DNA from: Naegleria gruberi
Taxonomy: Eukaryota
Length of the DNA stretch: 64,000 nt
Assembly: GCA_000004985.1 (NCBI GenBank)
Contig: GG738850.1
Reading direction: 5' to 3' (one strand)
Positions 3,939-62,912 of this stretch are shown one piece after another; the first letter of the stretch is position 1, and the number at the start of each line of letters is the position of its first letter. The notes beneath the pieces were generated by a model. It was given only the letters and a program-made list of their open reading frames with translations, had not been told where the DNA came from and searched no databases. Made by a program: the position numbers and the translations under genes.

Positions 3939-4078
3939 ATATTGTCCTTCAAAATTAAACTGTATTATTAAGCCAGAGAAAATCTCTTTGAATGTTCTAA
4001 TCGAAACAAATCCCAAATGTCAGCCAATGTGGAATAGCTTCTAGGTACATTAATTACCTTAACCTTAATCATTCATCA

Positions 4079-4167
4079 GGGTGGTTAGCTCAGCGGTAGA
4101 GCACCGGATTGCAAAGTTAATTGCAGCAGACATCCGATGGTCACGTGTTCGATCCACGTACCACCCT
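4079..4167 (+). tRNA. tRNA-Cys (anticodon GCA) with a 17-nt intron in the anticodon loop
   Basis: GGGTGGTTAGCTCAGCGGTAGAGCACCGGATTGCAAA[gttaattgcagcagaca]TCCGATGGTCACGTGTTCGATCCACGTACCACCC+T folds as a cloverleaf with acceptor GGGTGGT/ACCACCC, D stem GCTC/GAGC, T stem ACGTG/CACGT, T loop TTCGATC and anticodon loop TTGCAAA. Intron is about 4116..4132. The track ORF 4081..4266 is just a translation of this tRNA. Confidence 0.85.
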
Positions 4168-4570
4168 ACCTTTTACCTTCTTTTGAGTTATAAGAAATTG
4201 TTAATTCTTCTTTTGAGTGTTCTTTTAACTTGTATTGAAAAAAAGCTCGTTCAAGATAAAGAGTGAATGATCTTCATTAAATTCTTATTGATAAATTAAC
4301 TGTGAGAATGGTATTATTTGGGTTAGCTTGGTGATTAATCAGAAAGGTGGCATTTCATGAATGTTTACAATATTACAAAGACAGTCTCAGAATTCTAAAA
4401 TAGAACTCAAATTGTTGTTTGTTACAAAAGACACTAATCTCTTGATTGGTTCTTCGGTGAGAAAACAAGGATTTTTGTGTCTCTTGGCAGACACAACCTT
4501 TATAAATATCCAACCTTGTAGCATAGCAATTTTAAAAAACAAAGCGAAACCTTTCCATCAATAACAAAGA

Positions 4571-5314
4571 ATGGTAAAATCAGATCAACCTACCGCACCA
4601 ACTGGCACACGTTGTAAAACATGTGTTTGTGGAGAAACAGGGTGCGAACATATCAAGCAATTGAGAAAAATGACTGGTAAAGGGAAACCATATATCAAAA
4701 GCTTTAATGAAAAGATCCAACGTTTAATAACATTAGAAATGAAGGACGAATTTGAGAAGTTTTTAAAGGGAGAATTGACAAAAATCAACTTGGATTCTCT
4801 CAAGCCAAAGACTGGAAAAGAATACGAACTTGGTATTAAAGTTGAATTTTATGATGTCATTGAAGTGAAGTGGAAGAAAACTATTCAAACATGTGACAAC
4901 TCTAACTCAAGTATTGGATCAAGTGCTAATCCACTCCGTTCTCCACAAACAGGTAATGATATCTTAAATTTTTTTGAAGAAGCCAATGAAGACAACATGT
5001 CAGATTCATCAGTCAACCTTGATGAAATGAATGAATCTCAAACAATCCATTCACAGCCTAAATATAAGTGTATGGTAGATACTCCAGAAAGTTTGCAAAT
5101 GATCTGTCTATCTGATATTGAATTGAGAAGCTATTCCAATTTAAAAACACGTTTGAGTGAAAAGTTCTCATGTACTGTTGGTAGCATCTATTTCAAATAT
5201 CAACAGGATCGTAAAAAGTGCCTGTTGGAAGATGATAGAGATTTAATGGATTTATTTAGTCGTGAATTAATAAAGAGTCAAAAGGATTGGGAAAACTTTA
5301 TAATTTCCATTTGA
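4571..5314 (+). CDS. Hypothetical protein with a C-terminal PB1-like domain; N-terminal Cys cluster (CKTCVCGETGC)
   Basis: 247-aa ORF. The C-terminal segment ICLSDIELRSYSNLKTRLSEKFSCTVGSIYFKYQQDRKKCLLEDDRDLMDLF resembles the PB1/OPCA acidic motif (YxDEDGD-like). It lies between the two inverted tRNA-Cys copies. Confidence 0.4.
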   Translation: MVKSDQPTAPTGTRCKTCVCGETGCEHIKQLRKMTGKGKPYIKSFNEKIQRLITLEMKDEFEKFLKGELTKINLDSLKPKTGKEYELGIKVEFYDVIEVKWKKTIQTCDNSNSSIGSSANPLRSPQTGNDILNFFEEANEDNMSDSSVNLDEMNESQTIHSQPKYKCMVDTPESLQMICLSDIELRSYSNLKTRLSEKFSCTVGSIYFKYQQDRKKCLLEDDRDLMDLFSRELIKSQKDWENFIISI

Positions 5315-5364
5315 TTTTGGATTAAAAATTAATAATTTCTTATAACTCAAAAGAAGGTAAAAGG

Positions 5365-5453
5365 AAGGGTGGTACGTGGATCGAACACGTGACCATCGGA
5401 TGTCTGCTGCAAATATCTTTGCAATCCGGTGCTCTACCGCTGAGCTAACCACC
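5365..5453 (-). tRNA. tRNA-Cys (GCA), second copy in inverted orientation, with a 17-nt intron
   Basis: The reverse complement gives exons identical to the 4079..4167 copy. The intron (gatatttgcagcagaca) differs at 3 positions. The 31 nt 3' of the tRNA (ccttttaccttcttttgagttataagaaatt) are also identical to the flank of the first copy. Track ORF 5267..5452 is spurious. Confidence 0.85.
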
Positions 5454-5529
5454 CTGTTGTGGTGTTAAGAATTAAGACGATCACTGCAGTACCCTACATA
5501 CTAAGGCTATACAAAACTCCACCATAATA

Positions 5530-11957: not shown

Positions 11958-12230
11958 GAGCTGTTTGATATTAATGGTGCAACTCTAACTGATCATTTTA
12001 CAGTTGAGTGCAAACAACTAACTTCAAAGTTCCAAAATTCAAAGTAATTCAGGTCCCTAATCTAGAACTAAGGTCCATAGCTCAAGCTCACTACTCGAGA
12101 AATAGTTTATTCTTTCGTACTGATTTGTGTATAGTATACGAAACTGGCAGAAAAGTTGCAAAGTCAGTGGTGCTCTAGTTTTTGCGTGCTTGCTTTAGAA
12201 ATATCTGTGGTCCCATTTCGGTTTGTTAGA

Positions 12231-12420
12231 TTTTTATTTTTTATTTTTACTTTTTATTTTTTATTTTTATTATTTTTATGATTTGATATTGGGNNNNNNN
12301 NNNNNNNNNNNNNNNNNNNNNNNNNNNNNNNNNNNNNNNNNNNTATAAATGGGCATGTGCCGTGCCAATATCAAATCATAAAAATCATAAAAATATAAAA
12401 ATAAAAAATAAAAATCTGGT
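12231..12420. repeat. Assembly gap (50 N, 12294..12343) embedded in an imperfect AT-rich inverted repeat / palindrome
   Basis: Left flank ...atttttatgatttgatattggg and right flank ccaatatcaaatcataaaaat... are exact reverse complements. Further out, tttttattttttattttt motifs are mirrored on both sides. Confidence 0.7.
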
Positions 12421-33595: not shown

Positions 33596-33667
33596 GCTTT
33601 GTAATAAAATAAAAGATTTTCTAAGGTCGCCTATTCATATTCATCCAGAATGATTGCAGTCATAAAA

Positions 33668-33785
33668 GACTACAGCACCACAGGTTCCCAAGTTGTCTCC
33701 AACCTCAGTACTGATGTGGCTCGACGATGCTTAACTTCTCAAATCGGACGGGATGAGGTGCATTCATCGTGATATGGCCGTAGCC
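33668..33785 (-). rRNA. 5S ribosomal RNA gene (118 nt)
   Basis: Minus-strand sequence GGCTACGGCCATATCACGATGAATGCACCTCATCCCGTCCGATTTGAGAAGTTAAGCATCGTCGAGCCACATCAGTACTGAGGTTGGAGACAACTTGGGAACCTGTGGTGCTGTAGTC matches the universal 5S pattern: ACGGCCATA, CCCGTCCGAT, box A GAAGTTAAGC, AGTACT, GGGAGAC-like, GGTGCTGTAG. Helix I pairs the 5' and 3' ends. It is followed by TTTT (Pol III terminator) and lies 73 bp downstream of the LMBD1 stop, on the opposite strand. Confidence 0.85.
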
Positions 33786-34325: not shown

Positions 34326-34396
34326 TCGGGTGTGGTATAGTGGTAGCATTCCAGACTGTCACTCTGGCGACCCGGGTTCAATTCCCGGCACTCGAG
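34326..34396 (+). tRNA. tRNA-Asp (anticodon GTC)
   Basis: TCGGGTG TG GTAT AGTGGTA GCAT T CCAGA CTGTCAC TCTGG CGAC CCGGG TTCAATT CCCGG CACTCGA G. Acceptor has one G-U, a 4-nt variable loop as in tRNA-Asp, and discriminator G. One A-C mismatch in the D stem. Followed by TTTTTT (Pol III terminator). Confidence 0.75.
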
Positions 34397-34825: not shown

Positions 34826-36478
34826 ATGATGAAACAAGTAATTGGAAGGAAAGCAACATTGTTGGTGTTGATTTTGGCTTTATGCACAATATTTGTTATG
34901 GGAAAGGAATCGAATAATGATCCAATTATTGGACTTTCTATCGGAAATACACACTGGAGAGCTGTCATTATTAGAAATGGTAATGTTGAATGGATTAGAG
35001 ATGGAGAAGGGCAGATTGAACACAAATCTTTTGAGAATATTAACAAAATAATAGGAAAAAATTACAAATCCATTCAATTTAAAGATCCATACTTGTTGGA
35101 ATCGAATAAGATTTTTGAAAGAAATGGAAAGGTTTATTGTAAATTTGATGTAGATGGAGTTGTGAAGGAAATGACACCAGAAGATATTTATTCAAACATT
35201 CTGCTTGATGTAAAGCAAGCAACTTTAGAATATTTAAATGAGAATATTACAAGAATCTACATTTCAGTTCCTGTTTATTTTGGTCCTGATCAAAGAAATG
35301 TTATTCGAAATGCTGCTTCAGAGCAAGGTTTAAAAATTGAAAGATTTCTTCTAGATCCAGTCAACACGGCAACATTCAATACCAAGGAATACGAATCAAA
35401 TAATTCAGCTAACATTCTAGTTGTGGACATGGGAAGAAAATCATTGGATGCAACTGTACTGAGTAGAAATAATAGCGTGTTTGAAGTTTACCAAGCTGAA
35501 TCGAATGGCCAATTGGGATCTGAAAAGTTTCATATGAAATTGAGAGATTTATTTGTTTCGAAATTTAAGAAACAACATGAATCATTAAGAGATGTGAATT
35601 TATTGGAAAATCAACAGGTGAATGACTTGTTAATGAGTCATGCTGAGATAGCAATGATAGCCCTCTCGAATGATTGTAAATATCATATTGTAATACCATC
35701 TCTCTATGAAGGAAAGGATTTCACATACACTCTAACTCGTGATTACTTTGAAAAACATTGTAAAGACCTTCTTGATGAAATTTCCAAGTTGATTTACAGC
35801 ATTATTACAGAGACAGTTTTTTACTTTGAGACTGTTGATTCGGTCATTCTCTCAGGTGACTCAACCAATAACCCGTTAATAAGGAAGTCAATTACTAATC
35901 GTTTTCCATTTTCCAAAGTTGTACATGGGCAAAATCCAGAGGTTGGTGCTGCTATTCAAGCTTACATGAGAAATCATCCTGAATCAAGTGTTCCGACTTT
36001 ATTTCTTGCGCCATTTTCCATTGGAATTGAAAATTCAGATCATCAATTGGTGAAGATTATTCAAAGGGGTGACTTGTTACCAACTGTGAAACGAGTAATC
36101 TTTTCAAATTTGGATGATTTTAGTGAATCTGCTCATTTGAAGATTTTCATTGGTGAATCTGTGGTTAATATTGGACCAAGGAATGTTCATATCGGTGATT
36201 TGATTCTGAAAGGAATTGAATTGACTGAGAGCGGGAATGCACAAATTCAAATTTCCTTTCAAATTGATGGAGAGTATAATCTCACAGTTACAGCTCTCGA
36301 TTTGAAAACCAACGCCAAGAGTGAAACTGTGATTTCTCTTCACAGTTTTGCCAATAATCTTGAACTAATTGATGAATTATTAGAGGATGGAATTCAAGAA
36401 GTCACAGATAATGTTAAAACTGAAAAGCTTATTTCCAGTTTCATCGTGGATCCAATTAAAAATCATGACGAATTTTAA
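34826..36478 (+). CDS. Hsp70-family ATPase, short STCH/HSPA13-like form with signal peptide (nucleotide-binding domain only, no canonical C-terminal substrate-binding domain)
   Basis: Signal peptide MMKQVIGRKATLLVLILALCTIFVMG. Actin-like ATPase motifs IIGLSIGNTHWRAVII (phosphate 1), ISVPVYFGPDQRNVIRNAASEQGLKIERFLLDPVNTA and VILSGDSTNNPLIRKSI (like GGSTRIP). Length is 550 aa. Confidence 0.7.
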   Translation: MMKQVIGRKATLLVLILALCTIFVMGKESNNDPIIGLSIGNTHWRAVIIRNGNVEWIRDGEGQIEHKSFENINKIIGKNYKSIQFKDPYLLESNKIFERNGKVYCKFDVDGVVKEMTPEDIYSNILLDVKQATLEYLNENITRIYISVPVYFGPDQRNVIRNAASEQGLKIERFLLDPVNTATFNTKEYESNNSANILVVDMGRKSLDATVLSRNNSVFEVYQAESNGQLGSEKFHMKLRDLFVSKFKKQHESLRDVNLLENQQVNDLLMSHAEIAMIALSNDCKYHIVIPSLYEGKDFTYTLTRDYFEKHCKDLLDEISKLIYSIITETVFYFETVDSVILSGDSTNNPLIRKSITNRFPFSKVVHGQNPEVGAAIQAYMRNHPESSVPTLFLAPFSIGIENSDHQLVKIIQRGDLLPTVKRVIFSNLDDFSESAHLKIFIGESVVNIGPRNVHIGDLILKGIELTESGNAQIQISFQIDGEYNLTVTALDLKTNAKSETVISLHSFANNLELIDELLEDGIQEVTDNVKTEKLISSFIVDPIKNHDEF

Positions 36479-36493
36479 TAAGGTAATAAATAC

Positions 36494-36954
36494 TATAAAT
36501 CAATTTATTATTGTGGTTTTCGAGAATCCTCGGACCGAGAAAAATTGCAATTTATTGATATTGCAAGGAGCAAAATTCGAAAAACGCATTTTTTACCAAT
36601 AAATTGCGATGAACAAAATCGCAACAAACCTCAATTATTGGTGTATGTTTTCATTCAAGGTTTTCAATTTTTCAGCCTAGTTTCCAATAACTTTTGCATA
36701 ATTTTCTTCCCATTGTTGAAAGGTGAGTAAGGACTTGATGTACACAATGAATACCACCTCCTTTTAGCAAACTCGTAATATCATCTTTAATGTAAAAACA
36801 ACCAACATTGTGCATCGTGATTTATCAAAAATGCACAATCTCAATTTTATTGGCAAAAATGTGAAATGAAAAAAATTCACAATTTCGCGATTTTATCTAA
36901 TATCAAAAACGCAAACACGGTCCGAGGATTCTCGAAAACCACAATATTTTATAG
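36494..36954. mobile_element. MITE-like non-autonomous element candidate (about 461 bp) bounded by long imperfect terminal inverted repeats
   Basis: Perfect 28-nt inverted repeat attgtggttttcgagaatcctcggaccg (36510..36537) / cggtccgaggattctcgaaaaccacaat (36918..36945). Both ends start with CTATAAA...(left) / ...TTTATAG (right). Outside the perfect core there is further IR-like similarity (ttgatattgcaa, gccaataaa). There is no coding capacity. It sits just 3' of the Hsp70-like gene. Confidence 0.4.
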
Positions 36955-37192
36955 AAATTTATCTGAAATATGGTACAATGTCTTTGCTCGCTTTGCTATA
37001 ATGTTAAATTGATCAAAGATCAAATAACAAGTAGTTGGATATTTCAACCATTCTTCGTTTTGAATGAGTATCAATTCCACACTTCTATGGTTACAATTTC
37101 TTGGATTCAGACTCAAAATCTAGGATTTGAATCCAACTAGCAATATTTGCATTCTTTCCACCAAACAACTTGGTTAATTCATCAACAACAAG

Positions 37193-37921
37193 TTATTTAC
37201 AACTAGTGTAAACTGGACAAATTGGTGGCAATCTAAACATGGTCGAGTCTACAATCGTGCTTGGAATGTAAACGTTCTGTGAAAGATTCACTTGTGGCAG
37301 AGTGAGTTCAATACTCAAAGGAAAACAATACTGCTCTGGTTGAGTTGGTTTTGTCGTCCATTGTGAATAGGTTTTGGTAAAGATATGAGTTGCTTCAAAT
37401 TCTCCATGCTTCTTTCCAAATGAATTCTTACTATCCAACGGATAGCAAACCAAATCCCAATCAATTTTCTCCTTCAAAATCCTACAAGAGCAATGTCCTC
37501 TCATTACATGATATTCATAATCATTGGAACCTAATCTAAAATAATAACGACTCGCATTGATTGGTTCACCATTCGGATTGATACTCACAGAATCGATACG
37601 TTTTCTCATGGTTTCTCTATCGATCCATGTCTGGCTATTGGTTGTTGAGATGTGTTGGTGATGGTCATGTGTGGAATTCTTTCGTGTGAGACTACTTGTC
37701 ATTATCATGGAATATCTTGGTGGTAAACAACATTTAGAGTCCCCAGAAGGTAAACTCTGCTTCCATGCCTGATGTATTGTCCTTCTCAGTGACTCATCTC
37801 TAATGAGTGAAAAATCTACGCATTCAACTTGATTCTCACCTCCACATATGAATATTGTTGTGAACAAGACAATTATCAGTATAATATTCCTCATCTTTAT
37901 ATCTTCAATATTGCTCCTCAT
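37193..37921 (-). CDS. Hypothetical secreted cysteine-containing protein (signal peptide)
   Basis: 242-aa ORF; N-terminal MRNIILIIVLFTTIFICG; 13 Cys; no domain recognised. Confidence 0.4.
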   Translation of the reverse strand: MRSNIEDIKMRNIILIIVLFTTIFICGGENQVECVDFSLIRDESLRRTIHQAWKQSLPSGDSKCCLPPRYSMIMTSSLTRKNSTHDHHQHISTTNSQTWIDRETMRKRIDSVSINPNGEPINASRYYFRLGSNDYEYHVMRGHCSCRILKEKIDWDLVCYPLDSKNSFGKKHGEFEATHIFTKTYSQWTTKPTQPEQYCFPLSIELTLPQVNLSQNVYIPSTIVDSTMFRLPPICPVYTSCK

Positions 37922-42671: not shown

Positions 42672-42744
42672 TGCCGACACCAGGGATCGAACCAGGGACC
42701 TTAAGATCTTCAGTCTTACGCTCTCCCAACTGAGCTATGTCGGC
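42672..42744 (-). tRNA. tRNA-Phe (anticodon GAA)
   Basis: Minus strand GCCGACATAGCTCAGTTGGGAGAGCGTAAGACTGAAGATCTTAAGGTCCCTGGTTCGATCCCTGGTGTCGGCA is a canonical cloverleaf, near-identical to eukaryotic tRNA-Phe-GAA. It is followed by T7 on its own strand (Pol III terminator) and sits only about 10 bp from the stop codon of the upstream + strand ORF. Confidence 0.9.
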
Positions 42745-45506: not shown

Positions 45507-48500
45507 TTACTTTTTTCTACTGTCCTGCATTTCCCACTCACTATCCATTGGATTTTCCTCCAAATCAACTTCTCCAATCTTGACCAATTTCTTGGCAAAC
45601 TTTGGATTTAAAGCAAAATTCTTATATTGCATTTCAGGTTTAGGTTTTTCAATTTTAGTTTCTGGTTTAAGGCAACCAATTAGAATAAAGATACAACAAG
45701 TGAACATTAGAATGACTATCAAAACTGCCATGACAACAAGAGGGATCCATAGAATATCATTACCAGAGAATGTTTCAGGAAGAATAATTGGTTTAGCTTC
45801 TTCCACAATAATGATCTCTCCCCTTATTTCTAAAATACCTATCATTTGATTATCAAAACATGTGCAAACGCCTGTTGAGTTATCAGCCAGAGAAAATGAA
45901 CATGAAGGTGCATTAGTAATCTTTCCATCACTTAAAGTCTTGCATTCATATTTGTAAAAAACGTTTGAATTATTGTAGCCAACTTGTTCAGTAAGTGGAA
46001 TGAAAAACATGATAGGGGCTGTTAAGTTGTTCATATTTACCACTTGATTACTCGAGTTGACTATTGAAAGGAAAACAGTTGTTTTTGATTTGATGCTTGT
46101 TTTTGACTTGATAACTCGTTTAGGTTCTACAACCACAAACGAATCTGAATTGTATATTCCTTGATTATTAATGGAATATAATGAATAACTCCATGGTTTC
46201 ACGCTTGAGAGGGCAAGTTTTGGTAAAGTGACTTTTACACTCTGTGATGTAATATACATTTCTGAAAGCTCATCAGCAAAATGTCTATTTGAAGTAATGG
46301 TTGAATAACCAACATTGCTACTAGATGGCTCACTCCCTAATATCATATTTCTTTTGGATAATTCTGAAATGTAAGTTGAAAATTTCAAAAACTCAGAATC
46401 ATATTTCAAGTTGAATTCTAATTTGTTCACATTTTCGAACAATACTGAAATAAATCCTGACAGCAACTTTTCAACTCCATCTAAGAGTAAAATGTTCTTA
46501 TTTGAATAAGCTTCGCTCAAACATTTTTCAGAAGCATGAATCAAAAGCGACAATCTACCCTCATCTAGGGAGCTTACACTTTTAGAAAGTGAAAATGCTG
46601 AATAAATAAAGCTGGTGACAGATTCAGTAGTTAATGGATTAAGAGATTTTTCCCTTCCAACTTCTTCATTAGCCAAATTGGTTATAAAATCAAATTTAAG
46701 CTCCTCTATCAATGCATCAACATTTGAAGTGGAGGTAATTCTTTTTGTTGTTGAGTTTGACAATAGTTGGTCCTTAATCATTGTAACAATTGAGGTGATG
46801 GTTGCCGTGTTAAATACATTTTGAGAAAGAGTTTCTTCTTGCTTTTCCTGGATAGATCTTCTTGTCCAAGTCGAAATGAGGGATTTCAATTCTGTAATTT
46901 CACTAACAGTTGGTGGAATAATGGCGACACTGGTTTTGACAATCATATCAGTGTCGGTATCATGATCTACAATCTTAATATAGAGATCTAAGGTTCCAGA
47001 ATTTGATACTGGTAAATATTGAGACATTGATTTGTTTGATGATTGAGCAGAGCTGGAGGCTATTGGGATATTCAAACCTGAATAATTATCAATAAAACCA
47101 TATTCAAAATCAAAGGAGGGTTCTGTTTCACAATTTGGACATCTAAAAGAAAATTCTGTGCTAAGAGCATAACCAAGAGAAGGGGTTACTGAACATTCAC
47201 ACAGCTTTGGGAATTTCACAACCCTGAATTGATAAGACAAAGTTGAAGATAACCAACTAGATTCATCATCCACTCTTAGAGTGAGAATATAAACGCCTTC
47301 ATCCATATATTGAGTATCTATAATAATAGAGTTTGAGATAGACAATGGATTTCTCATTTTCTTTAGCAATGCTTGATCTATTTTAGTCCCATTAATCCTC
47401 CAAATTCTTTGAACGCGATTGATATCTTCAACTCCTTGAATTCCAACTTGAAGATTTAAAATCTCACCCTTTTTTACACTCTTTGGGTTCACAGAGCTGT
47501 AGAGAAGATTAATGACTGGTGGAATGCCAAACTTTGAATCTAAAGGGAAATTAATTTGTAAAGAGGAGGAGACATTCCTAAAACCTTTCACCACATTAAG
47601 GTTTATATCTATAGGAGCATTCCAAAAGCTTTGATTGTCTGGCTTGAAAATGGTTACATAGTTTGGTTCAGAATTGAAATTTAACAGAGAAGAACAAGTG
47701 TCCCCGTTCATAAAACAAGACCATAACATCTGTTCCTTCTCTGTTGTGTGGTCATTGTCAGTGAGGGAATATGCAAGAACGTATTTTGTCGAGGAGGCTT
47801 CTACTGCGAATAATTGCAAATCCAACTCTGAAATTCTAGTTTGAATGTTAAAGGTTGATGTAAATTTAGATGTTAAATACTCATTCATCGAGTTAAATTC
47901 AATTGAAAATGAATAGAGAGAATCCATCAGTGTAGAATATCTTGAAATAACCAAGTTGTTATAGTTATTTACAGAGAATGTTAGAGGAGGCCCATCTACC
48001 TTGGCATAGCTTGTAGTATAGGTAAAGTTAGAGGATACACAATTTGGATTGATTGTCTTTTTGAATACAATCGGTAAATCACTCACACTAACAACTTTGG
48101 AACCAATGAATACAGGAGGTTGTGGATCCGAGTTCATATCAAATGTGAAGGTAGTTTCACTTTCTGTTTTGAATAAGGTACTTTTCACTTTCAGTTTGAA
48201 AATGTGAACACCTCTGGAGTAGTCATTGAATTTGAAGAAGACAGTCTTAGCACCATTATTGTTGGCTTTCTGGAGGATAGTGTTAATCTTTGAATCTAAA
48301 GAGATAACACTCCACTCAAAAATGACAGGCTTTACATCTCTACTATAACTCTTCGATCCATCCAGAATGAAATCATCACATAATGAGTGTTTCTCTATTC
48401 TCACAGTAGGTGCCAATGGGGATGATGGAGGACTAACATTCATTTCAACAAAGGAGCCATTTGAATTCTCTCCTAGTACTTCCACATTGATATATAGGAT

Positions 48501-51500
48501 GCCCCCTAGTCTTAATGTAAAATCTTCACCAAGATTAATATAAAAGGTGCTATTTTTCCATTCACAAGACGGGAGAGTTCCTAAAAGCTCATTATTCAGA
48601 ACCACTTTTTTACAATCCACATAGTAAAGAGAAGGAAAAAATCCATTAGTTTCTAGGGAAATCTTATCGCCATTGTCTGAGAATTTCAAACCTGATTTAA
48701 AGCTCAACTGGCATTTGGCACCAAAATAGTTTTCCAAACAAGTCTCGCATTTAGTTCCTTTCCAAAATCCATTTTTCTGGTTCGAATAACATATACATGT
48801 TCCATTCATTTGGCATTCACCATGATAGGAACAAGATGAAGGTGAACTACATGGTGTTGTTTTACATTCTTCTCCAAAATAAGGATGCATGCATTGATCA
48901 CATTTATCTCCACTCCAGTATCCCTTAATATCATCTTGATAACAGGAGCAAGAATTCAGTTGTTTACATTCTCCATGACGACTGCAGACACTAGTATTTG
49001 AATACTCAATACCAAAGCAATAAAAGTTTTTACATTCTTTACCATAGAAACCATCTCTGCATTCACAAATATCAGGAGATTTACAATAGCCTTGACTTGA
49101 ACAAACATTATAACTCTGTGAAGATTTTCCATAACAGTTGAACAGATTGCATTCAGCTCCATAAAACCCTTCTTTGCAAGAACAATTATTTGGAGAAGTA
49201 CATATTCCATTTGATGAGCATACATTTTCACTGGCGAAATCTATGCTAAAGCAGGAATAATTGCTGCACGTTAATCCTTCATATCCATTTTCGCATTTGC
49301 ACAAGTTTGGGGCAATACATTCTCCATTTGAATGACAAGTTCCTGGATCATTATTTGAAATATTAAAACAATCAAATTGTTCACATTCATCACCGTAGTG
49401 ACCTATGTTGCAGGAACAATTGTTAGGACCTGCACAGGACCCGTTTGAAGAGCAAGCTATGGAATCATTCCTTTCAATCCCAAAACAGGAGAAGTCAGAG
49501 CAATCAACACCAAAGTAACCACTAGTTGTACAATTACATACATCCCTTGAGACGCAATCACCATTACCTGAACAAACATTGGTATTATTATTCAAAACTC
49601 CAAAGCAGTAGAAATTTTCACACCTATCTCCAAAGAAGTCAGAGAAACAATCACACTCATTTGGTTTGATGCACACTCCATTTCCTGAGCAGACCTCCTG
49701 GCTTGTATTCACAACCCCAAAACATGACGCAAATTCACAACTATCACCACTGAAACCATCAAAACAGGAGCAATTATTGTAATCAAAACATTGCCCTAAT
49801 GAAGAACATGCTAAGGAATGGTTTGAGGGATATCCAAAACATGTAAATTCATCACATTTTTCTGAAAGATATCCTTCAAAGCATAAACACTCATCACTAG
49901 AGACACATTTACCATTCCCACTGCAAACATTTGAGCTATTAGAAGAGTAACCATAACAATCGAAAAGAGAACATTCCAGTCCATGATATCCATCATCGCA
50001 TGAACAGTTATTAGGTCCTAAACACATTCCGTTTGAGGAACATACAGATGTCTCTGTTTCATTCTTTCCAAAGCATTCAAAGTGTTCACAATTATTGCCA
50101 TAAAAACCTTCCAAACATGAACAGTTACCTGGGGATACGCATAGACCATTAGATGAACATACAGCTGTTGAATTGTTTTCCAATGAGAAACAGGTAAACT
50201 TTTCACATTGGTTTCCATAATAACCTTCATAACAAGTGCAGTTGTTTGGTGAGGAACAAAGACCATTTCTTGAACAGGAATCCACTGTTGAACTCTCAAT
50301 CCCAAAACAATCATAAAAAGTACACTCTAAACCATAATATCCACTGAAACATGTGCAATTATTTGGGGAATGGCAATCACCATTTGAAGAGCAAACTGAA
50401 CAGTCCGTTTCATTCTTTCCAAAACATTGATGGTACTGACAATTATTTCCAAAATATCCTTCTTCACAAGTGCAGTTATTTGGAGAGTTACACTCACCTC
50501 TCGAAGTACAGACTAAGGTTGAATTGTGTTCAATGTTAAAACATTGATACATGTTGCACTCTATTCCATAGTATCCTTGATGACAGGAACAATTATTATA
50601 AGAAGAACAACAGCCATTATACGAGCATACTTCCTCTCTTGAATGCTCAATACCAAAACAATCGAATAATGAGCAATCCGTTCCATAGTATACTCCTTCA
50701 CAGGAACAATTATTTGGACTTGAGCAAATACCATTCCCAAAGCAAACACTGGAGTTATCTTTCCTTATTCCATGACAATTAAAATATTGACACATATCTC
50801 CATAGTAATTGGGACTACATGAACAATTATTGACAGTCACACACAACCCTCTCCCACTGCAGACTCCCGAAAAGTTAGCAGGAATATTGAAGCATTTAGG
50901 TATTTCACAACTACTTCCTATCCAAGAATCATTGCATGAGCAGGAATTAGGAGAGGAGCAATTACCATGATTGCTGCACACTCCGCTCTCTCCATTGGTT
51001 TTACCAAAACAAACAGGAGAACTACAATCTTTTCCTGTCCACATTGTAAAATCTGAACATGTACAATTATTAGGAGACACGCATGTTCCGTGTCCAGAGC
51101 AAGTTGCTGGGAGGTCTTTTTCAATTGAGTAACAATAGTAATTTTGGCAAAGGTTTCCACTATAGCCATTTGAGCAATCACAATGGTCAATGTAAGAGCA
51201 AACTCCAAACGAAGAGCAAACAGTTGAATTATTCCATAAAACTCCACCACAGCTGGTATGGGTCAATTTTCTAACTCTAAAATTCGAAGTATCTGCAATG
51301 AAAACTTCATTAGAAATATTTGAATACGAAATTGAGTAAACTGAATCAATTTGAGCAGACAGAGAATCTGTTCCATCACCCACACTCCCTGAATTCCTTG
51401 CAGATCCAGCAATTGTTCGTATAATTCCATTTGAATAAACCTTCCTTATTACATAATTATCACTGTCAGAAATAAGCATTTCACCTGCTGATGTAAAGGC

Positions 51501-52400
51501 TATTGATGTTGGACTGCTTAATTGAGCTTGTTTAGCTTGACCTCCATCTCCTAAATATCCACTCACACCTGTACCAACAACTGTGATAATCTTGTTATCT
51601 AATCCAACCTTTCTAATAACATTATTGCCAGTGTCAGCAATAAACAACTCGCCCGTTGTTGGTGATATGGCAACATCGTTAGGGCTGTTGAGTTTAGCAC
51701 TTGTGGCAACACCATTATCTCCACCATATCCTAACAGAGAACAAGTGCCTGCAGCTACACTCACAACCGTTCCACTAATTTTACCAATACAATGATAGGT
51801 ATAATCTGAAAAGTATAAGACTCCACTCGAAGAAACTGCCAATCCCAATACTTGACCAATAGTAGAACTGGTTGCAGTTCCTTCAGTCAAAGCTCCTTTT
51901 GTTCCTTTTCCAATAACTGTGGAAATAATTTGATTCGTTGATATCTTTCTAATTCTATAATTTAGAGAATCACCCAAATACAAAGTCCCGTCTCCACTAT
52001 AAAAAGCCAAAGCTTGAGGTTTGTTGAGCTTGGCAGATGTCGCTACACCATTATCACCAAAATACCCTCCTGAAGATCCAGTTCCTGCTATTGTTTTGAT
52101 AATTCCATTCGATACTTTCCTTATTCTGTGATATGTTTTATCGGCAATGTACAAATCTCCATTCGATCCTACTTCAATAGCATCTACATAACCAATTGAA
52201 GCATGACTAGGGGATACACCATCTCCAGAATTTCCCTCATTACCATCCCCAACATAGGAGGTGATAGTAAATCGCTCGATTTGATCTGTGACTACTACAC
52301 CATTAAGGCTATTCAATATGATTAATATTAATATAACAATATACATCACTCGGCTATTACGGATTATTGTACAACCATCCGATCCTTTTGACTTCATCAT
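45507..52400 (-). CDS. Giant type-I membrane protein: signal peptide, ~6 NHL repeats, ~25 tandem EGF/tenascin-type Cys repeats, ~1000-aa Cys-poor extracellular region, single TM, short cytoplasmic tail
   Basis: Single 2297-aa ORF. NHL-like YIADKTYHRIRKV, LYLGDSLNYRIRKI, FIADTGNNVIRKV, LISDSDNYVIRKV, FIADTSNFRVRKL. Repeated CxGxGxCxSPNNCxCxxGYxGxxC units from about aa 390 to 1150. TM is ILWIPLVVMAVLIVILMFTCCIFILIGCL near the C-terminus. Confidence 0.7.
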   Translation of the reverse strand: MMKSKGSDGCTIIRNSRVMYIVILILIILNSLNGVVVTDQIERFTITSYVGDGNEGNSGDGVSPSHASIGYVDAIEVGSNGDLYIADKTYHRIRKVSNGIIKTIAGTGSSGGYFGDNGVATSAKLNKPQALAFYSGDGTLYLGDSLNYRIRKISTNQIISTVIGKGTKGALTEGTATSSTIGQVLGLAVSSSGVLYFSDYTYHCIGKISGTVVSVAAGTCSLLGYGGDNGVATSAKLNSPNDVAISPTTGELFIADTGNNVIRKVGLDNKIITVVGTGVSGYLGDGGQAKQAQLSSPTSIAFTSAGEMLISDSDNYVIRKVYSNGIIRTIAGSARNSGSVGDGTDSLSAQIDSVYSISYSNISNEVFIADTSNFRVRKLTHTSCGGVLWNNSTVCSSFGVCSYIDHCDCSNGYSGNLCQNYYCYSIEKDLPATCSGHGTCVSPNNCTCSDFTMWTGKDCSSPVCFGKTNGESGVCSNHGNCSSPNSCSCNDSWIGSSCEIPKCFNIPANFSGVCSGRGLCVTVNNCSCSPNYYGDMCQYFNCHGIRKDNSSVCFGNGICSSPNNCSCEGVYYGTDCSLFDCFGIEHSREEVCSYNGCCSSYNNCSCHQGYYGIECNMYQCFNIEHNSTLVCTSRGECNSPNNCTCEEGYFGNNCQYHQCFGKNETDCSVCSSNGDCHSPNNCTCFSGYYGLECTFYDCFGIESSTVDSCSRNGLCSSPNNCTCYEGYYGNQCEKFTCFSLENNSTAVCSSNGLCVSPGNCSCLEGFYGNNCEHFECFGKNETETSVCSSNGMCLGPNNCSCDDGYHGLECSLFDCYGYSSNSSNVCSGNGKCVSSDECLCFEGYLSEKCDEFTCFGYPSNHSLACSSLGQCFDYNNCSCFDGFSGDSCEFASCFGVVNTSQEVCSGNGVCIKPNECDCFSDFFGDRCENFYCFGVLNNNTNVCSGNGDCVSRDVCNCTTSGYFGVDCSDFSCFGIERNDSIACSSNGSCAGPNNCSCNIGHYGDECEQFDCFNISNNDPGTCHSNGECIAPNLCKCENGYEGLTCSNYSCFSIDFASENVCSSNGICTSPNNCSCKEGFYGAECNLFNCYGKSSQSYNVCSSQGYCKSPDICECRDGFYGKECKNFYCFGIEYSNTSVCSRHGECKQLNSCSCYQDDIKGYWSGDKCDQCMHPYFGEECKTTPCSSPSSCSYHGECQMNGTCICYSNQKNGFWKGTKCETCLENYFGAKCQLSFKSGLKFSDNGDKISLETNGFFPSLYYVDCKKVVLNNELLGTLPSCEWKNSTFYINLGEDFTLRLGGILYINVEVLGENSNGSFVEMNVSPPSSPLAPTVRIEKHSLCDDFILDGSKSYSRDVKPVIFEWSVISLDSKINTILQKANNNGAKTVFFKFNDYSRGVHIFKLKVKSTLFKTESETTFTFDMNSDPQPPVFIGSKVVSVSDLPIVFKKTINPNCVSSNFTYTTSYAKVDGPPLTFSVNNYNNLVISRYSTLMDSLYSFSIEFNSMNEYLTSKFTSTFNIQTRISELDLQLFAVEASSTKYVLAYSLTDNDHTTEKEQMLWSCFMNGDTCSSLLNFNSEPNYVTIFKPDNQSFWNAPIDINLNVVKGFRNVSSSLQINFPLDSKFGIPPVINLLYSSVNPKSVKKGEILNLQVGIQGVEDINRVQRIWRINGTKIDQALLKKMRNPLSISNSIIIDTQYMDEGVYILTLRVDDESSWLSSTLSYQFRVVKFPKLCECSVTPSLGYALSTEFSFRCPNCETEPSFDFEYGFIDNYSGLNIPIASSSAQSSNKSMSQYLPVSNSGTLDLYIKIVDHDTDTDMIVKTSVAIIPPTVSEITELKSLISTWTRRSIQEKQEETLSQNVFNTATITSIVTMIKDQLLSNSTTKRITSTSNVDALIEELKFDFITNLANEEVGREKSLNPLTTESVTSFIYSAFSLSKSVSSLDEGRLSLLIHASEKCLSEAYSNKNILLLDGVEKLLSGFISVLFENVNKLEFNLKYDSEFLKFSTYISELSKRNMILGSEPSSSNVGYSTITSNRHFADELSEMYITSQSVKVTLPKLALSSVKPWSYSLYSINNQGIYNSDSFVVVEPKRVIKSKTSIKSKTTVFLSIVNSSNQVVNMNNLTAPIMFFIPLTEQVGYNNSNVFYKYECKTLSDGKITNAPSCSFSLADNSTGVCTCFDNQMIGILEIRGEIIIVEEAKPIILPETFSGNDILWIPLVVMAVLIVILMFTCCIFILIGCLKPETKIEKPKPEMQYKNFALNPKFAKKLVKIGEVDLEENPMDSEWEMQDSRKK

Positions 52401-58484: not shown

Positions 58485-59975
58485 TTATTCTTCCCATTTG
58501 GCGTGGAAAGCACCCTTCATGTCAGTTCGTTCATAAGTGTGAGCACCAAAGAAATCACGTTGAGCTTGAATCAAATTGGCTGGCAAACGTCCTCTTCTGT
58601 AAGAGTCATAATATGCCAAACTTGAAGAAAGGGCAGGAGTTGGAATACCAGCTGAAATGGCCATTTGGATGATCTTTCTCCATGCAGCTTGTCTTTCAGC
58701 AATTTCCTTATTAAAATCTGGGTCCAAGAACAAACTTGGCAAGTTTGGATTGAGATCATAGGCATTCTTAATACGATCAAGGAAAACAGCTCTAATGATA
58801 CAACCACCCTTCCAGATACGAGCAATTTCACCGAGCTTCAAATTCCATCCATATTGCTTGGAAGCTTCAGCAATCAAATTCATACCTTGAGTATAAGAAC
58901 AAATCTTTGAACAGTAGAGAGCATTCTTCAATTGTTGAACAAAGACCTTCTTGTCAACAGTTTCAGTCAAATCGTTTGGAGTTGGACCAGTCAATTGAGA
59001 TTCAGCACTCAATCTTTCATCTCTCAATGATGAAATATAACGAGAGTCAAGAGCAGAAGCCATAGTTGGGATAGCAATTCCTCTTTCAGCACCTTCTTGA
59101 ACAGTCCATTTACCAGTACCCTTACTACCACTCTTATCTACAATCTTATCAACGAGGTGACCTTCACCCAAATCGTCCTTCTTCTTGAAAATCTTGCTTG
59201 TAATTTCAATAAGATAACTCTTCAATTCAGAATTATTCCATTCAGTGAAAGTTTCAGCAATTTCTTCATTTGTCAATTTACCAACACTCTTCATCATGTC
59301 ATAAACTTCAGCAATAAGTTGCATATCTCCGTATTCAATACCATTGTGGACCATCTTGACATAATTACCTGATCCTCTTTCACCAATATATGTGACACAA
59401 GGTGGTTCATTCACGAGTGGAGCAGCAATCTTTTCCAAAATATGTTTGATTTGATCATAAGCTTCAATTGGACCACCTGGCATCAATGATGGACCATGTC
59501 TAGCACCTTCTTCACCACCACTAACACCCATACCCATGTATAATAATCCGAGCTCAACAGCCTTCTTGGCACGCTTTTCAGTATTCAAGAACCATTCGTT
59601 ACCACCATCAATAATAATGTCACCCTTTTCCAAAAGTGGTGACAAGAGTTCAATAGTTGAGTCAACTGGGTTACCAGCTTGAACAAGCATAATAACCTTA
59701 CGTGGCTTGGAGAGACTGTTTACGAATTCTTGCATGGTTTTGAATCCAGCAAGTTGATAAGAACCCTTTCCTTCGTCTTCTGCTCTTTTAACCTAAACAC
59801 AATTTAAATAATAGAATAGAAAAATTCAATCAATTAAAAAACAATAAACACATACTGTGTGTTCAGTCTTTTCATAACTTCTATTGTAGACTGAAATTTT
59901 AAAACCCTTATCAGCAATATTCAAAGCCAAATTTTGACCCATAACAGCCAATCCGATCAATCCGATATCTGCCAT
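58485..59975 (-). CDS. gnd: 6-phosphogluconate dehydrogenase, decarboxylating (oxidative pentose-phosphate pathway), 2 exons
   Basis: Exon 1 is 59975..59856 ([43 protein letters not shown](P)-binding GxAxxG). Intron 59793..59855 (GTATGT..GTTTAG, 63 nt). Exon 2 is 59792..58485, with classical 6PGD motifs ([51 protein letters not shown]). Confidence 0.9.
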
Positions 59976-61204: not shown

Positions 61205-62912
61205 ATGATATTAAATAGTATTGTCATTCTCGGAGCCAGTGGAGATTTGGCTAAGAGAAAACTCTTCCCTGCCTTGTTTACAATTTTCAAAGAAGGATTT
61301 CTCGGAAGTGCTTGGAGAGTTATTGGTTATGCCAGATCTAACTTGACAAAACAAGAATTAATTGATACACACTTATTACCATTCCTTAAGAAACACGATA
61401 AGAAAGATTTGGATGCCTTCTTTGAACATGTTTTTTATCAAGCAGGTCAATATGACAAGGAAGAAGATTTCCAAGCTCTTAACAAATTGATGGAACAATG
61501 CGAAATTGAAGGTGAAAAGATTTTGGAAGCTGAACACAAATCTCAATTGGAACACAAGTGTTTGACCGATGATGAAGTGTTTGATGACTGTAAATCTCCA
61601 ACTGCTCCATTCAAACCACGTCGTCACAGATTCTTCTACTTATCTTTACCTCCAAATGTTTTCCTTAGCTCTGCATCAATGCTCGGAAGAACTTGTAAAT
61701 CTCAAACTGGATATAATAGAATTGTTATTGAAAAGCCATTCGGTAGAGATTTGATCACTTTCAAGAAACTTTCAAATGGTTTATCTAAAGTTTTTGGAAA
61801 GGATGAAATTTACAGAATTGACCACTATATCGGAAAGGAAGTTGTTCAAAACTTGCTTGTTCTCAGATTTGCTAACGTAATTTTGGAACCATTGTGGAAT
61901 AGAAACACAATTAAGAGTGTTCAAATCATTTTCAAGGAAGAATTGGGAGTTGAAGGAAGAGGTGGCTATGTAAGTACTTAATCATATTGTGTGGAAATTT
62001 ATTCATTTCAAATACAGTTCGATAGTTATGGTATCATCAGAGATGTTGCTCAAAACCACTTGCTCCAAATTTTGGCTCTCATTGCTATGGAACCACCAGT
62101 TACATTGAGCCCAACTGATATCAGAAATGAAAAGATTAAAGTACTCAAATCAATTGAACCTGTCAAGATGGAAGATATCGTAGTTGGTCAATACAAAGGA
62201 AAGGTAATTAATGGTGAAAAGGTTCTCGGTTACAGAGAAGATCCAAGTGTTGCCGATGATTCTATCACACCAACCTATGCTGCCTGTGTCCTTAAAGTTA
62301 AGAATAGAAGATGGGATGGTGTTCCATTCTTCCTTGAATCAGGTAAAGCTCTTGATGAAAGACTTGCTGAAATCAGAATTACCTTCAATGAAGTTCCAGC
62401 CAACTTGTAAGTTAATCTACTTTTTATTCAGCAATATTAACACAGATATAGATATACACATGCTGTAGTTAGTCCAAATGAATTGGTTATCAGAATTCAA
62501 CCAAATGAAGCTATCTACTTTAACATTGTAAATAAGGTTCCAGGTTTGGGTGAAAAACTCTCTGAATCTCAACTTAACTTTACTTATAAGACATTGTATG
62601 ATGCCAAGAAGATTCCAGATGCTTACGAACGTCTCATCCTCAATATGGTTCAAGGAGATGAATCTAATTTCTTATCAGAGGATGAACTCAAGTATTGTTG
62701 GCAAATCTTTGATCCAATTCTCCATGAATTGCAAGAAAAGCTTGTTCAACCAGAGGTATGTATTTTGTAATGTATTTGATTGTCTCAAATCGAAATTATA
62801 GCCATATCCATTTGCCAGTGCTGGCCCAACAGCAGTTCATTATTTGAGAGCTCGTTATGGTTTAGTAGCAAGCAAAAATGTGAGTGTTCTTACTCGCTAT
62901 TCTAATCTTTAA
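61205..62912 (+). CDS. zwf: Glucose-6-phosphate 1-dehydrogenase (oxidative pentose-phosphate pathway), at least 4 exons
   Basis: Exons 61205..61969, 62018..62406, 62473..62755 and 62802..62912, with introns of 48, 66 and 46 nt (GTAAGT..ACAG, GTAAGT..TTAG, GTATGT..TATAG). Motifs GASGDLAKRK (NADP binding), RIDHYIGKE (active-site RIDHYLGKE), NVILEPLWNR, YGIIRDVAQNHLLQ. The 3' end is uncertain: a further 66-nt intron (62880..62944) would make the stop 62959 instead of 62912. Confidence 0.85.

Follow-up and report, generated by a model that had tools for sequence, protein, structure and literature searches.

Between two genes of Naegleria gruberi that converge at their 3' ends lies a short intergenic segment with perfectly matching inverted ends, and the question it raises is whether these ends belong to a mobile element or arose where they now stand. 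The segment was examined within a 64-kb window of nuclear DNA (the whole stretch analysed here), in which genes are closely packed and the GC content is 33–34%. Eukaryote-type domains are encoded across the window, including teneurin-like EGF/NHL/REJ, LMBR1, protein kinase and P-type ATPase domains. One 2297-aa ORF (45507–52400, minus strand) carries teneurin-type EGF, NHL and REJ domains. Two divergent neighbours, encoding 6-phosphogluconate dehydrogenase (58485–59735, minus strand) and glucose-6-phosphate dehydrogenase (61205–62410, plus strand), both belong to the pentose-phosphate pathway; the frame of the latter is divided between two adjacent ORFs (61205–61981 and 61991–62410), perhaps by a short intron.

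The two convergent (3'-3') stop codons are separated by an AT-rich spacer of 714 bp (36479–37192), inside which the candidate element is located. On the left, the ORF at 34826–36478 gave a Pfam HSP70 match with an expected value of 2e-60 and is NAEGRDRAFT_30761 (XP_002681315.1), with 100% identity across the annotated 526 residues; the scaffold carrying this gene is 707,703 bp long, and on it the locus is placed between this gene and NAEGRDRAFT_63230. Its stop codon, TAA at 36476–36478, agrees with the annotated C-terminus ...NHDEF, and the onset of the element close behind this codon, as described in an earlier note on this DNA, was confirmed, the distance being 30 bp with an AATAAA (36485–36490) in between. 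An 82-codon open stretch, in frame past the double stop of the Hsp70-like gene, was rejected as coding sequence, since 9% of shuffles gave an equal stretch and the annotated protein ends there. The Hsp70-like protein is highly divergent: in a search of 5.8 billion proteins the closest other protein was 27% identical and no orthologue from another Naegleria was returned. Its C-terminal HDEF resembles an ER-retention signal. Just upstream of this gene are a dispersed 5S rRNA gene (33667–33785, minus strand, 105 bits) and a tRNA-Asp gene (34326–34396, plus strand), and a tRNA-Phe gene (42672–42744, minus strand) is found further right. On the other side of the spacer, the stop codon of the orphan predicted protein P0012 is 246 bp from the element. 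No homologue of P0012 was found outside N. gruberi. An ATG further upstream would lengthen its ORF to 242 aa (37193–37921, minus strand) and give the protein a hydrophobic N-terminus resembling a signal peptide, so part of the 5' end may be missing from the gene model.

The ends of the segment provide the firmest evidence. The sequence TATTGTGGTTTTCGAGAATCCTCGGACCG at 36509–36537 is perfectly complementary to 36918–36946, so that the perfect core of 28 bp reported before is real and extends by one base to 29 bp. No perfect inverted repeat of short range in the 64-kb window is longer; 100 shuffles yielded no match, and by analytic calculation about 2e-9 perfect inverted repeats of 29 bp, with at most 600 nt between the arms, are expected by chance in 64 kb. 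Complementarity drops from 100% to near background immediately inside and outside the core, and edges as abrupt as these are more in keeping with a functional terminal repeat than with a duplication decaying uniformly along its length. The simplest bounds of the element are 36511–36944 (434 bp, within a size range of 434–438 bp), which gives a 27-bp terminal repeat reading TTGTGG...GGACCG (Table 1). The earlier note had instead drawn the boundaries at a CTATAAA and a TTTATAG heptamer, and these did not hold: the distance to the core is 17 nt for one heptamer and 9 nt for the other, which puts them 8 nt out of register, and the CTATAAA is at 36493–36499, one base before the start that had been given. 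They are probably AT-rich flanking DNA rather than ends of the element. A compositional contrast with AT-rich surroundings had also been proposed. It stands for the terminal repeats, with 48% GC against a range of 13–30% in the interior and flanks, and is lost for the interior, which at 30% does not differ from the right flank (30.5%). Because the two 29-bp ends do not have a single mismatch between them, a fairly recent insertion is suggested.

Table 1. Coordinates of the candidate element, its parts and its flanking genes (positions in the 64-kb window).
Feature	Start	End	Strand	Remarks
Upstream flanking gene, divergent Hsp70-like protein NAEGRDRAFT_30761, 526 aa	34898	36478	+	Ends NHDEF
TA dinucleotide just outside left terminal repeat	36509	36510		Candidate target-site duplication
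Left terminal inverted repeat TTGTGGTTTTCGAGAATCCTCGGACCG, 27 bp (29 bp including TA)	36511	36537	+	48% GC amid 13–30% GC
Non-coding interior, 380 bp	36538	36917		30% GC; subterminal copies of ATTGYR; several small hairpins formed locally; resembles no protein or RNA family
Left-arm ATTGYR copies, starting at 36544, 36560 and 36603	36544	36608	+	Orientation of the left-repeat copy at 36510
Single clear co-linear inverted block within the arms, TTTTTACCAATAAATTGCGAT	36590	36610	+	Pairs with 36838–36859; 21/22 nt match
Right-arm ATTGYR copies, starting at 36883, 36839 and 36748	36743	36883	-	Orientation of the right-repeat copy at 36945
Right terminal inverted repeat	36918	36944	-	Exact reverse complement of the left
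TA dinucleotide just outside right terminal repeat	36945	36946		Candidate target-site duplication
Convergent downstream gene, orphan N. gruberi predicted protein P0012, 138 aa	37193	37609	-	

Inside the core the two arms have much less in common. Terminal repeats of about 130 bp, imperfect but extended, had been claimed for this segment, and a long hairpin with them; neither was recovered. Apart from one co-linear block, whose local score of 27 compares with 18.5 +/- 2.5 in shuffles and was reached by 4 of 500 of them, and from scattered ATTGYR hexamers, the arm sequence beyond the core shows about 60% identity with many indels. The minimum-free-energy fold of the DNA is much more stable than those of shuffled sequences (z = -7.4), and in this predicted single-strand structure the arms are joined through the 29-bp stem alone, with the arm interiors folding locally. 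Within the window, a 31-nt stretch at the 3' end of the Hsp70-like coding sequence (36333–36363) is 84% complementary to right-arm positions 36841–36871 (blastn E = 0.002), probably by chance.

The hexamer ATTGYR, which corresponds to positions 2–7 of the 29-bp repeat, is enriched in the element. It occurs 10 times there, compared with 1.7 +/- 1.4 times per window of equal size, and among 1271 scanning windows this number was reached by only one, the one containing the element. Four copies in the left arm and four in the right arm match the direction of their own terminal repeat, i.e. they face inward. Without the two terminal copies the orientation bias is weak (6 of 7). One further plus-strand copy, at 36807, pairs with the copy at 36839 to form a 9-bp hairpin. 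In many DNA transposons, subterminal transposase-binding sites are arranged as inward-facing copies of a motif.

The segment had been described as non-coding, and the searches bear this out: the concatenated six-frame translation had no match at E <= 10 among 5.8 billion proteins, so that neither a transposase remnant nor a copy of the element inside a predicted protein was detected, and none of the small ORFs in the element corresponds to an annotated protein. In an Rfam search of positions 36300–37200 all matches had E values of at least 0.4, far under the gathering scores, and a scan of the whole window at the gathering threshold returned the 5S rRNA and tRNA genes, all outside the element. 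A known structured RNA was therefore rejected as a candidate, there being no Rfam match at the gathering score, and so was an origin of the terminal repeat from a tRNA or other RNA, as neither ARAGORN nor Rfam gave a match at the element.

Two other inverted structures in the window are worth describing. The first is a 136-nt inverted repeat (4074–4209 and 5324–5459, 96% identical) which consists of two copies of a tRNA gene together with about 40 nt of common downstream flank. These are intron-containing genes of 89 nt (Rfam tRNA at 4079–4167, plus strand, and 5366–5454, minus strand), both missed by ARAGORN, with an anticodon that looks like GCA; they bracket a 247-aa ORF (4571–5314) with no Pfam match. 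The second (12228–12417) is an AT-rich inverted repeat with a gap of 50 N (12294–12343) in its middle and arms at about 12228–12293 and 12365–12417 that are 80–86% complementary, with indels. Possibly the Sanger assembly broke here on a palindromic or foldback structure; in sequence the repeat is unrelated to the candidate element.

The 64-kb window contains one copy of the element. At low stringency no diverged relative of the element or of its interior was detected in the window, and none of the window ORFs of at least 120 aa has a transposase domain. Exact pieces of the terminal repeat (19–27 nt) were not found in the JGI metagenomes, prokaryote genomes or phage records, and in viral contigs they were unmatched except for one 19-mer with two matches. 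The latter, in homologous viral contigs (L001 and L002), were set aside as chance matches, since they diverge right past the 19-mer and have no inverted partner. These collections apparently do not contain Naegleria, as indicated by the flanking gene having no relative in the metagenomes, and their negatives weigh little. For the same locus, neither a relative of the Hsp70-like gene nor an orthologous site that would allow an empty-site comparison was present in the JGI metagenomes. Among the papers searched there was no description of Naegleria MITEs (transposable elements of the miniature inverted-repeat type), and the terminal-repeat sequence itself had no match in a literature search. Repeats make up about 5.1% of the N. 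gruberi genome (PMC9928731, Table 1) and are mostly unclassified, with DNA transposons among them (PMC12344493). In a curated survey only 0.28% of the genome was assigned to transposable elements (bioRxiv 10.64898/2026.06.24.734286), a figure which lowers the prior for a transposon at this locus.

An insertion should also be marked by a duplication of its target. The TA just outside each terminal repeat is a candidate; being palindromic, it can equally be counted into the perfect 29-bp inverted repeat, whose outermost 2 bp it would form. When the registers were scanned, TA, ATT (3 bp), TTTA (4 bp) and imperfect 6–9-mers fitted the AT-rich flanks equally well, and all of them are plausible by chance in flanks of 13–30% GC. 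Since there is a single copy in AT-rich flanks and its TA is inseparable from the repeat, the duplication is not fixed and no superfamily can be assigned.

Taken together, these data lead us to favour, at slightly better than even confidence, a cut-and-paste DNA transposon of the non-autonomous type that inserted between the convergent genes; it would be a MITE or, alternatively, a solitary element with an internal deletion. We rate this reading as the likeliest because of the perfect, GC-rich and sharply bounded ends, the MITE-like size, the lack of coding sequence, the inward-facing motifs and the position in a spacer between gene ends. As in MITEs generally, terminal inverted repeats are combined with a size below about 800 bp and no coding capacity, and MITEs are often found close to gene ends throughout the eukaryotes. 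The MITE proposed in the earlier note is thus retained in part: the size of 434–438 bp, the non-coding sequence, the perfect sharp-edged 27–29-bp ends, the inward motifs and the 3'-3' spacer speak for it, and the 130-bp repeats, the long hairpin and the outer boundaries have been given up.

The strongest competitor, which we nevertheless consider rather unlikely, is an immobile local inverted duplication, e.g. one made by template switching during replication or repair at a site about 400 bp away; such a sequence would never have moved and would have no partner transposase. It would agree with a sequence that is single-copy in everything searched (the window and the viral, metagenome and prokaryote collections, the collections apparently lacking Naegleria), with the lack of an unambiguous target-site duplication and with an interior of the same composition as the adjoining intergenic DNA, and the inverted tRNA pair and the AT-rich repeat around the assembly gap show that inverted structures not due to transposition do occur in the window. 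However, the 29-bp GC-rich sequence has no other copy in the window and hence no visible local source. In addition, a simple template switch of 29 bp would not be expected to give the ATTGYR enrichment, the inward orientation of the motif on both arms or the weak co-linear similarity of the arms.

A role at the 3' ends of the genes is more doubtful still. Whether as a DNA cruciform or as an RNA duplex, the 29-bp stem might stop transcription from both directions or signal the 3' end, or read-through might yield dsRNA that feeds RNAi. The location between two convergent stop codons, with an onset about 20 nt past the AATAAA, would suit such a role, as would the two perfectly matched arms and a fold far more stable than its shuffles, although the stability comes wholly from one stem closing a 380-nt loop. 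No Rfam family was matched at threshold, nothing comparable is present between the other convergent gene pairs of the window, and the JGI metagenomes contained no relatives that could show covariation or conservation. Moreover, a MITE could have the same side effects, so that a 3'-end function and a transposon origin are partly non-exclusive. Finally, a chimeric or inverted read join in the draft Sanger assembly is very improbable as the source of the repeat: the assembly does contain gaps, one of them (50 N) inside another inverted repeat, but here 380 bp of unique, non-symmetric sequence, free of any run of N, separate the arms, and an inverted misjoin would yield long, fully symmetric arms instead of a 29-bp core.

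If the segment is a non-autonomous DNA transposon, its life cycle can be outlined by inference, which extends to its mobility, its partner transposase, its superfamily and the duplication of a target site. A transposase encoded elsewhere in the genome would bind the 27–29-bp terminal inverted repeats, probably together with the ATTGYR motifs that face inward in the subterminal regions, pair the two ends and then excise the element. Reinsertion would take place at an AT-rich target with duplication of a few bases, TA being the simplest reading, in which case the empty site before insertion would read ...CAATTTAT-TA-TTTTATAG... The element itself would encode nothing and would be carried as a passenger downstream of the Hsp70-like gene, just beyond the AATAAA.

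A bolder version of the transposon reading, which we offer only tentatively, is that this is a young copy of an undescribed MITE family of Heterolobosea, with its 27-bp ends and ATTGYR motifs recognised by a transposase that is still active in N. gruberi. If this were true, Naegleria, which is poor in genetic tools, would gain a mobile element of its own along with a defined sequence for transposase binding. Confirmation of the element as a transposon would add one further MITE family to a protist in which most of the repeats are unclassified (PMC12344493), would aid the annotation of Naegleria repeats and might indicate an active DNA transposase. If it proves to be single-copy, it would be a local palindrome without evident importance. 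A confirmed transposon would leave the general picture unchanged, and the element would be an ordinary one unless it has been recently active.

Known element types show different combinations of the features seen here. Foldback elements and long-hairpin palindromes have inverted termini, and the N. gruberi element is like them in this respect and in some inverted similarity further inward. However, its predicted arm pairing stops at 29 bp and the inner similarity is weak, and a foldback or long-hairpin element was rejected as a candidate, since in the fold the arms pair over the core alone and not over most of their length. Tourist-like (PIF/Harbinger) MITEs are comparable in size and terminal-repeat architecture, and a 3-bp duplication is possible in one register. 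Target duplications of PIF/Harbinger are typically TWA (TTA/TAA), whereas the 3-bp candidate found here is ATT. MITEs and deletion derivatives from the hAT, Mutator, CACTA and P superfamilies, which have subterminal repeats, offer another parallel, as several short copies of the terminal motif extend over about 100–200 bp of each arm and face in the same direction as their own repeat. These superfamilies duplicate target sites of 8 bp, 9–11 bp or 3 bp; in contrast, the flanks of the element show imperfect 8- and 9-mers with 2 mismatches as well as ATT, all at chance level.

Stowaway-like and other MITEs derived from Tc1/mariner/pogo elements, such as human MADE1 from Hsmar1, are short and non-coding, with ends of about 27–30 bp and a TA duplication, and often lie near gene ends. 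MADE1 also contains an internal string resembling ATTGCGGTTTT, but because its position differs from that in the N. gruberi element, the string in common is probably a coincidence. The end of the element, TTGTGG..., has no established similarity to a known mariner, Tc1 or pogo end, and, unlike in the Stowaway and Tc1/mariner groups, its TA is inseparable from the repeat in the single copy. The element resembles these MITEs in being short and non-coding, in the length of its ends (27–29 bp) and in an AT-rich target at which TA may have been duplicated.
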